NCBI RefSeq assembly: GCF_964213995.1
Contig: NC_135819.1
Coordinates: 50,096,001-50,160,000 of the forward strand
Length of the DNA: 64,000 bases
From: Mustelus asterias
Lineage: Eukaryota
Direction of reading: 5' to 3'
A model generated the notes under the pieces. It was not told where the DNA came from, searched no databases, and was given only the letters and a program-made list of their open reading frames with translations. Both the position numbers and the translations under genes were made by a program. How positions within the stretch are numbered: position 1 is the first letter of the stretch; every line of letters begins with the position of its first letter. Shown piece after piece: positions 18,864 through 62,277 of the stretch.

Positions 18864-19020
18864 ATAAAAGTAGCATGAATAGCTGGTAAGATTGTGCCCA
18901 TAGTCTTTCTCTGAAGTAAATTTGAAAACAAAAATATACTCTATAACTCCAGTTGATGAGTTGCTAGATTGCTTTGAAATCTGTTCCATTTAGCAATGTT
19001 GTGGAGGTCAGATATGAGCA

Positions 19021-19123
19021 GATATCCACTCCATCTGACGAAGGAGCAGGGCACCGAAAGCAAATGGCATTTGCTACCAAATAAACCTGTTGGACTTTAA
19101 CCTGGTGTTGTTAAAACTCTTAC
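19021..19123 (+). mobile_element. Penelope-derived short repeat (family A), single arm with mutated hammerhead
   Basis: ccat-CTGACGA-A-GGAGC-agg-GCACC-GAAA-GC-AA-atgg followed by aaataaacctgttggactttaacctggtgttg. Confidence 0.8.
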
Positions 19124-25699: not shown

Positions 25700-26330
25700 C
25701 ACCAGTGTCTGTGGAATCCGTACCCCAGTGAGAGTCAGTGTGTATGGGACTAATACCTAAGTGATGGTCAGTGCACGTTAGACCTGTACTCCAGTGAAAG
25801 ACAATGCATGTGGAACATACAATTCTATGAATGCCAGTATGCGTGGATTGCAAACCCCAATGGGTCAGTGGCTGTAGAAACTGAACTTCAACGAAAGTCA
25901 GCGCATGTATAACCCAGTTAGAGTCAATGTGTGTGCAGCCCATATCACATTGAGATCAGCTTGTGTGTAGAATCTCTACCCTTGTGAGAGTTAATTCTCA
26001 TGGAATCCATATATCAGTGAGCATTAGTGTGTTTGGGATCCATACCTCAGTGAGAGCCAGTGCCTGTAGTACACCAGTGAGAGTCATTATCTGTGGAATC
26101 CATATCCCAATGAGAATCAGTATGTGGGTTCCATATCCCAGTGAGAGTCAGTGTATGAGGGACCTGTAACCCAGTGAATGTGTATGTGTATCAAATCCAT
26201 ACTCCAGCAAGAGCCAGTGCATGTGGAACCCATACCCCAGTGAGAATCAGTGTCTATGGAACCCATACCCCAGTGAGAGTCAATATGTGTGGGACTCATA
26301 TCCCAGTTCAAATCAGTATATATGGGACCT
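25700..26330. repeat. Degenerate ~30-bp minisatellite
   Basis: About 20 diverged units resembling tggaacccataccccagtgagagtcagtgt(g/a). Confidence 0.85.
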
Positions 26331-30410: not shown

Positions 30411-30550
30411 CTCCAGAGCCCAATTTCACGTTGCCTGGCCCATTAATGGCTATCCAGCATGAAACACACTCTGTGAAAGGCTGAATGTTGCTGGCGAGGG
30501 CAGGAAGAGGGAGGGTGCAGGTTGGCCTTTCCAATGTGTTCCCTCAGAGG

Positions 30551-30682
30551 AAGAAGTCTCACAACACCAGGTTAAAGTCCAACAGGTTTATTTGGTAATA
30601 AACCTGTTGGACTTTAACCTGGTGTTGTGAGACTTCTTACTGTGTTCACCCCAGTCCAACGCCGGCATCTCCACATCATGAC
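30551..30682 (+). mobile_element. Penelope-derived palindromic insertion (family A) with 12-bp TSD
   Basis: About 42-bp inverted arms around tggt; TSD ttccctcagagg at 30539-30550 and 30683-30694. Confidence 0.85.
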
Positions 30683-37591: not shown

Positions 37592-38112
37592 GGGTGGAAT
37601 TTTACGAGAATTATTCCGAGTGTCCAACTAGCATGAAAATGGGAGAGTTCCCGATGTGTTTTTGGGGCGAGTTTTCACGCCCAATCTTATTCACTTAGTC
37701 ATTGAAAAAATGGTCTAGACTATTTCTAGCTGCTGCAGGCAGCGGGCTGGGCTTAATTCAGCAGCCAGTTTGATGCCCCTTTCAGTCCATTTTATTATAA
37801 CCACTTCATCAGAACTTTTTCAGACCCTAGCTATTATATTTTGACCTTGGCTGGGACTTTCTGTTGTGGTGGGACTCTTCGCAGGAAATTCTATGCCCAG
37901 CCAAAAGCCCATTGATTTCCAGCAGGACTGGATGATCCCTGTGGTGGGCCAGAAAATCACACCCTCTATTTTCCCTTGTCTTTATGGTTCTCATTGAAGC
38001 TGCCACTGGCAGTACAGTGCCCAGAACCCTTTCCATTGTTCAGTCTGACGCGTCAAGCACCTAAACCGTTGGTTATGTGCTGTGGTTTCGGCTGACAAAC
38101 GGACATTGACAC

Positions 38113-38366
38113 TCTGTTTCACAATGATCGGAAGAGCCGACATTGAAGGATCAAAAAGTGTCGTCGCTATGAACACTTGGCCGTCACAAGCCAGTTATCC
38201 CTGTGGCAACTTTTCTGACACCTCCTGCTTAAAACCCAGAAGATCAGAAGGATCGTGAAGCCCAGCTTTCACAGTCTGTATTTGTACTGAAAATCAAGAT
38301 CAAGTGAGCTTTAGCCCTTCTGCTCCATGGGAGGTTTCTGTCCTCTCTGAGCTCGCCTTAGGACAC
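38113..38366 (-). pseudogene. 28S rRNA fragment (domain V region), pseudogene
   Basis: Reverse complement matches vertebrate 28S (cacaatgat.ggaagagccgacat.gaaggatcaaaaag...ccagttatccctgtgg.aacttttctgacacctc...gagctcgccttaggacac) with many CpG-decay substitutions. Confidence 0.92.
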
Positions 38367-38370
38367 GTTA

Positions 38371-38690
38371 GGGCGGCACGATGGCACAGTGGTTAGCACT
38401 GCTGCCTCACAGCGCCAGGGACCTGGGTTCAATTCCCGGCTTGGGTCATTGTGTGAAGTTTGCACATTCTCCCCATGTCTGCGTGGGTTTCCTTTGGGTG
38501 CTCTGGTTTCCTCCCACAGTCCAAAGATATGCGGGTTAGGTTGATTGAACATGCTAAAATTGCCACTCCGTGTCAGGGGGACTAAATATGTGAGGTTTTG
38601 GGGATAGGGGCTAGGTGGGATTGTGGTCGGTGCAGACCCAATGGGCCAAATGGCCTCCTTCTGCACTGTGGGGATTCTATGATTCTGTGA
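38371..38690 (+). mobile_element. HE1/V-type SINE
   Basis: Complete head, V-core and CR1-type tail. Confidence 0.9.
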
Positions 38691-39783: not shown

Positions 39784-40014
39784 TAACAACACCAGGTTAA
39801 AGTCCAACAGGTTTATTTGGTCGCAAATGCCATTAACTTTCGAAGCACTGCTCCTTCGTCAGATGGAGTGAGATTTCCACTCCATCTGACGAAGGAGCAG
39901 CGCTCCGAAAGCTAATGGCATTTGCTACCAAATAAACCTGTTGGACTTTAACCTGGTGTTGTTAAAACTCTTACTGTGTTTACCCCAGTCCAACGCCCGC
40001 ATCTCCACATCATG
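39784..40014 (+). mobile_element. Penelope-derived palindrome (family A): 87-bp inverted arms plus 3' extension
   Basis: Arms 39784-39870 and 39878-39964, 7-nt spacer, few mismatches. Confidence 0.9.
39882..39918 (+). ncRNA. Minimal type-I hammerhead ribozyme motif
   Basis: stem I ccat/atgg; core CTGACGA(A); stem II GGAGC-agc-GCTCC; GAAA; palindromic AGCT stem III; UH site TA at 39913-39914; mirror copy on the minus strand at 39830-39866. Confidence 0.7.
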
Positions 40015-49450: not shown

Positions 49451-49501
49451 AGTCGAGGACCAGAGGGCATAATCTCAGAGTAATGGGTTGCCTATTTAAG
49501 A

Positions 49502-49613
49502 TGTGGAGATGCCGGCGTTGGACTGGGGTAAACAAAGTAAGAGTTTTAACAACACCAGGTTGGACTAAAACCTGTTGGACTTTAACCTGGTGTTGTTAAA
49601 ACTCTTACTGTGT
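49502..49613 (-). mobile_element. Penelope-derived palindromic insertion (family A) with 14-bp TSD
   Basis: Inverted arms agtaagagttttaacaacaccaggtt / aacctggtgttgttaaaactcttact; TSD ttgcctatttaaga at 49488-49501 and 49614-49627. Confidence 0.85.
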
Positions 49614-50199
49614 TTGCCTATTTAAGACAGAGATGAGGAAGAATTTCTTCTCCCTGAAGGTAGGGAATCTGCGGAATTCTTTATCGCAGACATCTGTAGG
49701 GGCTGGGTCGTTAAGTATGTTCAAGGCTGAGATAGACAGATTTTTAATCAGTAAGGGGATCAAGGTTTATGAGGATAAGGAGGATAAGGCGGCAAAGTAG
49801 AGTTGAGGATTACCATAGCAGATGATCTCATTGAATGGCGGAGCGGACTTGATGGGCCAAATGGTCTATTTCTGCTCCTATGCCTTATGGAAAAGGCTTT
49901 CTGAATCTGAGCCATATTTCTGCCACTGCTCGGATGCTGATAGAACCATCTACAATGATGATTTGGGCAAATAAGCAATTATTCTGGAGGAAAGTTCTGG
50001 AGGAGAATCTTTGTACCTCAGTGGGATCTGGGGGAATGGTGATGTGGCATGAGGAAGAGCTTGCCCTGAGCGTTTGACTTCCAAAGAGCATGCAGAACAA
50101 GATATTCCGAAGATGGAAGGATGGGTCAATCAGAACTCCTGTTTTTCTGAAAGAAAGTGCAGAGCGTGAAGTTATGATGACCTAACGATGCTCTTAAAT

Positions 50200-59379: not shown

Positions 59380-59714
59380 TCATAGAAGATCATAGAAACC
59401 CTACAGTGCAGAAGGAGGCCATTTGGCCCATCGAGTCTGCACCGACCACAATCCCACCCAGGCCCTACCCCCACATATTTACCCGCTAATCCCTCTAACC
59501 TACACACCTTAGGATTCTAAGGGGCAATTTTTAATCTGGCCAATCAACCTAACCCGCACATCTTTGGACTGTGGGAGGAAACCGGAGCACCCGGAGGAAA
59601 CCCACGCAGACACGAGGAGAATGTGCAAACTCCACACAGACAGTGACCCGAGCCGGGAATCGAGCCCGGGACCCTGGAGCTGTGAAGCAGCAGTGCTAAC
59701 CACTGTGCTACCGT
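59380..59714 (-). mobile_element. HE1/V-type SINE, young subfamily
   Basis: Near-identical to 61495-61823 (diagnostic cttcacagctccaggg and ttaaaaattg). Confidence 0.92.
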
Positions 59715-61270: not shown

Positions 61271-62277
61271 TTTTAAGGGAGTGTACCTTTAAGAAAGGTT
61301 TTGTTTAAAAATCATGCAGTTTACAGCTTCAGTGATGTCACTGGAGGTGGAGCTAAGCTGTGGCAGTCAGGTGATCGGGGTTTTTTCCTTTGGGCTTTCA
61401 GTTTTGTTTTTGGGAGCAGTTTAGCAGCAAGCTAAGAAGCAGTCTCTTTCTCTCCCTGTTTTTTTCCCTCTTTGTTTGGTTCTGCCTTAAAGAAGCGGCA
61501 CGGTAGCACAGTGGTTAGCACTGCTGCTTCACAGCTCCAGGGTCCCGGGTTCGATTCCCGGCTCGGGTCACTGTCTGTGTGGAGTTTGCACATTCTCCTC
61601 GTGTCTGCGTGGGTTTCCTCCGGGTGCTCCGGTTTCCTCCCACAGTCCAAAGATGTGCGGGTTAGGTTGATTGGCCAGGTTAAAAATTGTCCCTTAGAAT
61701 CCTGGGATGTGTGGGTTAGAGGGATTGGCGGGTGAATGTGTGGGGGTGGGGCCTGGGTGGGATTGTGGTCGGTGCGGACTCGGTGGGCCGAGTGGCCTCC
61801 TTCTGCACTGTAGGGTTTCTATGAAGCTGTGTTTTGGGAAACAGATTTGACTACAACCTCTTTGAGTTTCTTCACAATGGATTTTATGATTTCTATGATT
61901 TTCAGCATTCAATCCAGGAGGCTGGATGCCTGTAATAAGTGGGCATTAACCTGTGCTGTACTGTGTTTATTTGGAGGGTTTTGTGTATTGGATGTTAGCT
62001 TTGGTTGGAACACATTGGAGATATTTTAAGAGTTATACATTATCGTGGTTGTTGTGTTTTTTGTTTGTAATTGTTAAAAATTCTTGCGAATTGTCTTACT
62101 ATACGTGTCAACCATATTCTTAATTAAACTTTGTTTTGATAAAAGCTCCTTGTGGGTCTGTTGAGTCAAACCTGAAGTGAAACCTCTCATGCTTATCCTC
62201 GCCAAATTCAACGTAAAACATTACAGGTCAGGCAAGCTTCATAGAACACCTTGAAATATCCAATCTGACTTGTAACA
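61271..62277 (+). mobile_element. Second solo LTR nested in the first, 4-bp TSD
   Basis: Starts ttttaagggagtgtacctttaaga (TG eroded), ends tgtaaca; TSD cagg at 61267-61270 and 62278-62281. Confidence 0.75.
61495..61823 (+). mobile_element. HE1/V-type SINE, young, nested in LTR
   Basis: CpG-rich intact head, V-core and tail. Confidence 0.92.

Follow-up and report, generated by a model that had tools for sequence, protein, structure and literature searches.

Head-to-head ends of a Penelope-like element with an inherited hammerhead that probably cuts a minority of templates

Results

Structure of the palindromic locus

The window, by which the whole stretch of 64,000 nucleotides is meant, contains at 39784-40014 a palindrome in which 83 of the 87 positions of the left arm (39784-39870) pair with the right arm (39878-39964) across a 7-nt spacer, in agreement with the inverted 87-bp arms of the preliminary description. 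Past 39964 the right arm continues as an unpaired extension up to 40014. The features of this locus, and of the other members of its family in the window, are as follows.

39784-39870, minus strand: left arm, a tailless pLTR end
39830-39866, minus strand: second copy of the minimal hammerhead, predicted cut after 39834
39871-40014, plus strand: right arm, a tailed pLTR end
39882-39918, plus strand: minimal type-I hammerhead, predicted cut between 39914 and 39915
39931-39936, plus strand: AATAAA hexamer, 17-22 nt past the predicted cut
39975-40014, plus strand: the 'tail' of ~38 nt, on one arm only
19016-19123, plus strand: family member, a solo tailless arm with a damaged hammerhead
30545-30680: family member, a short head-to-head pair that lacks the hammerhead and has a 12-bp target duplication
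49500-49618: family member, a short head-to-head pair that lacks the hammerhead and has a 14-bp target duplication

The hairpin loop (39871-39877) is family sequence of the right arm, which forms a blunt joint with the left arm. The left arm is ~10-14 nt below the typical length of a tailless arm and carries all four of the arm-to-arm differences, three of them inside or beside the hammerhead motif. The last three bases of the tail, to 40014, are the ORF start codon in full-length copies and also overlap the flanking LINE sequence. In contrast to 22 of the 27 pairs sampled from the genome (see below), the locus has no target-site duplication; its flanks match separate parts of one LINE, in reversed order, and it is likely that the left duplication was lost through a later deletion. 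Contigs of one DNA run span each flank junction, with 27 letters inside the element only, fewer than the threshold for bridging. No promoter part of the pLTR is kept. The AATAAA hexamer, a putative poly(A) signal, is positioned between the predicted cut and both arm ends, so templates would need to read through it.

Four family members had been counted in the window, and all four are present, although only 39784-40014 passes the hammerhead descriptor used here. Stem II and U16.1 are broken in the copy at 19016-19123, while those at 30545-30680 and 49500-49618 are truncated downstream of the motif. Elsewhere in the window, a eukaryotic 28S rRNA fragment (38047-38388, minus strand; Rfam, 120 bits) adjoins a tRNA-like SINE at 38375, a degenerate 33/66-bp tandem array occupies 26070-26329 with looser copies from ~25688, and an inverted pair of 325-bp SINEs, 95% complementary and with 1,785 bases between them, is found at 59390-59714 and 61500-61824. 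A poly-G run of 83 bases (2385-2467) may be a sequencing artefact.

The parent element

The palindrome is a 5'-truncated head-to-head insertion of a Penelope-like element with reverse transcriptase (RT) and GIY-YIG domains. In its relatives the upstream sequence is the end of an ORF and matches GIY-YIG weakly (E 5.5e-4), and a natural ORF of 892 amino acids matches RVT_1 at E 1.3e-9. The ATG of this ORF is the end of the tail, and the protein has the motifs DKG, YIDD, CX4CXXC (residue 754) and VVY..YIG. In Pfam the GIY-YIG match on the C-terminal piece scored 20.6 bits, under the cut-off of 22.6, and was not reported for the full 892-aa protein; a search of solved structures with the ORF gave no matches. 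The pLTR follows the ORF in long copies, and its partial-tandem arrangement is seen in one of these (L067) and in other long copies. An RT with a C-terminal GIY-YIG in one ORF, the pLTR arrangement and a tail at one end are together those of an endonuclease-bearing (EN+) Penelope-like element. The Penelope origin proposed in the preliminary description, and the linkage to an RT and GIY-YIG ORF that it named as a check, are supported by the RVT_1 match, the weak GIY-YIG match and the motifs. A CX2-5CXXC linker between RT and EN, here in the form CX4CXXC, is shared by Neptune and Nematis and defines their type of layout (PMC8557442); judged by this motif, the layout of the present element would be of the Neptune/Nematis type.

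The hammerhead motif

The plus-strand motif consists of a 4-bp stem I, the core, an extra A, a 5-bp stem II and a self-complementary 4-nt helix III, and the minus-strand motif has G-U changes in stem II and helix III. Both strings read as they had been quoted, with cuts predicted after 39914 (plus) and 39834 (minus). A hammerhead descriptor of our own gave 28 matches when run on 599,600 bases sampled at even spacing from the genome, 27 of them in the family of the palindrome and one unrelated, and none in any of five dinucleotide shuffles; its two matches in the 64-kb window are the two arms of 39784-40014. An Rfam scan of the window at E<=1 returned no hammerhead family.

Stem statistics were taken from 95 arms gathered by homology, in which conservation of the core is partly built in by the anchor. 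The core CUGANGA / GAAA / UH is present with stems I and II, as in a minimal type-I hammerhead. At position H17, 91 of the 95 arms have U, A or C, and G never follows U16.1. The first pair of stem I is C-G in 64 arms and U-A in 29, and the fourth is kept in 46 only; pairs 1-5 of stem II are kept in 89-95. For covariation, 40 of 56 distinct motifs were used, the 16 with a longer stem II being left out. Paired cells made up 95.0% as against 91.7% after shuffling, and the test gave 24 cells vs 8.1 shuffled, with two of nine pairs changed on both sides, a figure equalled in 132 of 500 shuffles. Across these aligned motifs any support from stem covariation would be modest, with few events behind it. 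The assignment as a minimal type-I hammerhead is supported by the descriptor and by the arms collected through homology, and perhaps modestly by covariation.

The extra A had been said, along with the 4-bp stem I, to make monomer activity doubtful; it is a known trait of minimal hammerheads (PMC4209133) and no defect. A modelled double hammerhead brought no gain in energy (-20.1 vs 2 x -10.1 for two monomers), and a dimer on the same strand is impossible at 39784-40014.

Abundance and layout of the family

Layout was surveyed in 100 evenly spaced 10-kb stretches (999,400 bases). Abundances throughout are based on such samples and on exact patterns, DNA searches of the genome itself having favoured near-identical copies. 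The sampled bases contain 94 pLTR ends, or ~94 per Mb and by extrapolation ~350,000 genome-wide, and 31,924 bases of family sequence; an exact 33-mer of one subfamily, B, that reads through the cut site occurs 42,808 times. The high genomic abundance suggested in the preliminary description is borne out by these numbers, and its statement that insertion with inverted terminal copies is common by the 27 inverted pairs found in ~1 Mb. These pairs are head to head and account for 54 of the 94 ends. Exactly one arm is tailed in 26 of them, both arms in none and neither in one (by our own score), and 22 have a target duplication of 9-17 bp, mostly 11-14 bp. Of the 94 sampled arms, 53 extend through the hammerhead motif.

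Arm lengths within pairs are correlated (rho 0.53, permutation p 0.003). A subfamily tag is common to both arms in 85 of 92 typed pairs, from a set of 98, six of which could not be typed, in sets enriched by subfamily. An origin of each insertion from two different RNAs is not supported, given these shared tags.

The same head-to-head layout with one tail is found at the kilobase scale, with pieces of the ORF in both arms (L080-L084, L069, L073, L075), and in some inverted partners there is nothing but the tail or a part of it (L261, L272, L278, L305, L221). Eleven small contigs (L009-L014, L018, L019, L027-L029) carry one palindromic insertion of the family with the same flanking sequence, so that it lies inside a larger multiplied unit.

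Copy 5' ends at the predicted scissile bond

Positions are numbered from the first base past the predicted cut, +1, which is 39915 in the window copy. In subfamily B, whose cut-site sequence is TT followed by G, exact counts over the whole genome gave 1,160 starts at +1 vs 125 at -2, with filters at the two positions that each pass 0.41 on sampled DNA and 0.35-0.48 on partner sequence. This corresponds to ~2,900 copies starting at +1, about 6% of the copies that reach the site. With an open pattern, the first 100 of 871 listed matches, read by eye, had 33 starts at +1 vs 10 over -5..0, followed by 16, 11, 8, 3, 10 and 4 at +2..+7, with five from a shorter subfamily; a check by script placed 10 of the first 30 listed matches at +1.

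For the subfamily of the window copy, exact patterns with four upstream mismatches counted 253 starts at +1, 205 at -1 and 52 at +3, the filters differing in strictness. An open pattern listed 2,624 matches; scoring the first 100 by eye placed 65 starts between -7 and +4, and 36 of these at -1..+1 (p 1.7e-7). This test leaves out 16 rows on an internal repeat and another 19 that form a separate heap at +5, away from the cut.

Individual loci were drawn from the first 47 listed +1 matches of B, giving 40, and comparison was with the first 20 control loci. An inverted partner is present at 35 of the 40 +1 loci. This partner runs more than 1 nt past the cut in one of the 35, as against 7 of 11 partners at the control loci (p 4.5e-5), and that a shift of three bases decides whether the partner crosses points to a physical RNA end at the cut site. 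The +1 arm is the tailed one at 25 of the 35 partnered loci. Cutting would nevertheless be a minor event, since 53 of 94 arms pass the motif, only 2 of 74 anchored arms in an unbiased sample were called at 0/+1 and 42,808 B copies extend across the site. Calls of 5' ends further upstream in that random sample are confounded by subfamily divergence and were set aside.

A heap of ends could also arise if +1 were a hot spot for joining or deletion, through short palindromes, microhomology or stable mini-hairpins, with no cutting involved. The shared joint type with a 0-1 nt spacer at 14 of the 35 partnered B joints may itself be such a sequence hot spot, and 44 of the 100 listed window-type rows at +1 are symmetric joints on self-complementary AT. 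Others exist, as in the 16 listed window-type rows on the internal repeat, and estimates from solo copies only overlap, at 145 (49-311) vs 56 (29-86). Set against this, subfamily B has no palindrome at +1, its copies starting at the G after TT, while its 6-nt palindrome at -5..0 holds few ends; the filter that excludes the symmetric joint still yields the 1,160 starts, and removing the 44 listed B rows whose partner arm passes the filter leaves 15 at +1 vs 8 across the six positions before the cut. None of the 40 loci proved to be an internal deletion within an intact motif, which had been considered as the source of the heap. It would seem unlikely that a hot spot accounts for the heap.

If instead +1 were where the element's transcription starts, with the promoter firing there and the ribozyme making no cut, the discrete 5' end of the RNA would produce an identical cliff and would limit both arms alike, and Penelope does have an internal promoter (PMC2377424). 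The base before +1 is G in 39 and C in 13 of the 100 listed B rows (by eye), which could reflect a cap-derived G. In the same rows, however, it is A in 48, and C is depleted there by the filter and by CpG decay; in the window-type subfamily the 56 non-symmetric listed rows (by eye) have 23 G vs 33 C. The start would moreover have to fall exactly on the scissile bond in both subfamilies, whose bases there differ. In D. virilis transcription starts 46 nt before an intron (PMC2377424) whose end meets helix I (PMC4209133), which places the start upstream of the cut. This explanation has a low probability.

Stalling of the reverse transcriptase at +1 on a ribozyme that is folded and uncut would fit with the predicted ability of the motif to fold alone (stem II pair probability 0.995) and with the ends raised at +2..+7 as well. 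A stall would however be expected at the entry to stem I (+5) or at stem II (-7) and not at the scissile bond, and -7 has 5 of the 65 ends among the window-type matches listed, making stalling very unlikely.

The excess of copy 5' ends at the scissile bond is likely, from the junctions in the genome, to be a fossil of self-cleavage in vivo, in ~6% of templates, and there is a good probability that self-cleavage lies behind the +1 heap. At one further site, G000:C4:98883971-98884220, three head-to-tail matches 111 bases apart each start at the predicted cut, and it is possible that they represent a tandem of cut-product units.

Hairpin and ribozyme at the palindrome

RNA of the palindrome is predicted to fold at -150.2 kcal/mol (z -26), with none of 200 shuffles equally stable. 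The modelled probability of the first pair of stem II falls from 0.995 in the bare motif to 0.41 in the right arm alone and 9e-15 in the palindrome, suggesting that the long hairpin masks the ribozyme at 39784-40014. The head-to-head geometry provides one ribozyme per strand, each transcribed after its own antisense arm.

A structural switch between cleavage and hairpin had been proposed for this locus, and the near-intact state of both motifs and the great stability of the hairpin are in its favour. A selected source of dsRNA might likewise be considered, small RNAs from Penelope copies being known in a rotifer (PMC3846280). The proposed switch is not supported, on two counts: the antisense arm is made first in either direction, and the ribozyme fold has a predicted probability of ~1e-14 in the palindrome. 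In addition, the layout is the default of the family, three of the four changes private to the left arm lie in or next to the motif and the promoter part of the pLTR has gone. A functional switch, or a dsRNA source under selection, is highly improbable at this locus. The palindrome is a routine insertion product and not a selected device, since there are 27 pairs per Mb and many end before the ribozyme. Were the locus read through, hairpin RNA would form, with dsRNA or siRNA as a possible output. The locus is likely to be an ordinary, dead stub of a very abundant transposable element.

Discussion

The combination of a one-sided tail with an inverted copy is already known and common; the point of interest is the footprint left at the cut site across the family. 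EN-bearing Penelope-like elements are described as having an inverted 5'-truncated copy and a 30-40-bp tail at one end (PMC8557442, PMC3846280). The present family resembles them in its RT and C-terminal GIY-YIG, partial tandems, head-to-head copy, one-end tail, target duplications and pLTR hammerhead, and shares its CX2-5CXXC linker with Neptune and Nematis (PMC8557442). It differs from what is described for EN+ elements in a tail rule that is nearly strict (26 of 27), in target duplications that mostly span 11-14 bp and in a tail whose last bases are the ORF start codon.

The hammerhead, in turn, is similar to the minimal hammerheads of metazoan Penelope-like elements (PMC4209133) in its short stem I, the extra base between 9 and 10.1, G10.1-C11.1, the palindromic 15.2-16.2 and the presence of several sequence families per genome, but its stem II is of 5-6 bp, as against 7-8 in Schistosoma. 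In vivo evidence for minimal hammerheads is stated in PMC4209133 to be absent; the junction counts presented here are indirect evidence of that kind.

Closest in mechanism is PAc, the Poseidon element of Anolis carolinensis, for which the tail was attributed to a pair of internal RT start sites and both strands were found to be nicked and extended (PMC11167929). By analogy the tail here would be set by two internal starts, with both strands nicked and mainly uncut RNA as the substrate. The ORF of PAc, in contrast, starts inside the ribozyme, where the ATG here is ~97 nt past the cut; and according to the same account no PAc RNA-seq read ended at the cut and cleavage was dispensable and protein-assisted, whereas the genomic 5' ends here heap at the cut. 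As with the HDV-like ribozyme of R2 (PMC3774820), genomic 5' junctions would reflect the position of cleavage, but R2 cleavage sets the 5' end of functional full-length copies and the cut here is just upstream of the RT start sites, with short stubs as the result. The animal non-LTR retrozymes (bioRxiv 10.64898/2026.07.22.740005) are also pLTR-derived and non-coding with a type-I hammerhead, but form head-to-tail tandems in which one strand carries two ribozymes; such an identity was rejected for 39784-40014, an inverted pair with one motif per strand and no head-to-tail tandem. A search of the literature, mostly of papers open without subscription and of their main texts, found no description of Penelope 5' ends heaping at a hammerhead cut.

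A route of insertion may be proposed on this basis. The endonuclease of the element would nick both strands ~12 bp apart, and reverse transcription of sense RNA would begin at either of two internal sites ~38 nt apart, as for the anole element in vitro. Self-priming on an antisense template was proposed in PMC3846280, whereas the heap of 5' ends at the cut site implies a sense template. Both arms would be limited by one 5' end, either because the same template was primed a second time or through snap-back of the first cDNA, the two being compatible with the +1 arm carrying the tail at 25 of 35 loci, and the arms would then be joined head to head. On a template that had already been cut, synthesis would run 60-100 nt from its start site to the cut and give a stub. 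Uncut templates would yield the longer copies, including 39784-40014, both arms of which run through the motif.

That the locus is a pair of head-to-head Penelope ends, likely dead, whose inherited hammerhead likely cuts a minority of templates and is masked by the hairpin here, is held with considerable confidence. The wider reading, that the genome keeps a record of germline hammerhead cleavage in which ~6% of templates were cut, both arms share the cut end as their limit, the template is sense, the stubs are dead and an uncapped ORF RNA is freed, seems on balance the better supposition. If so, cutting would sever the RT start sites from the upstream ORF, and the ribozyme would sort RNAs between the roles of template and messenger.

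Earlier papers describe the role of the Penelope hammerhead as unclear, in vivo evidence as lacking and cleavage as dispensable in vitro. With hundreds of thousands of family ends in one genome, junction counts can take the place of an in vivo assay, and here they indicate cutting that is probably real but infrequent, a sense template and a common 5' limit for both arms. The same count names the exact bond and may be applied to any Penelope family in any assembly.
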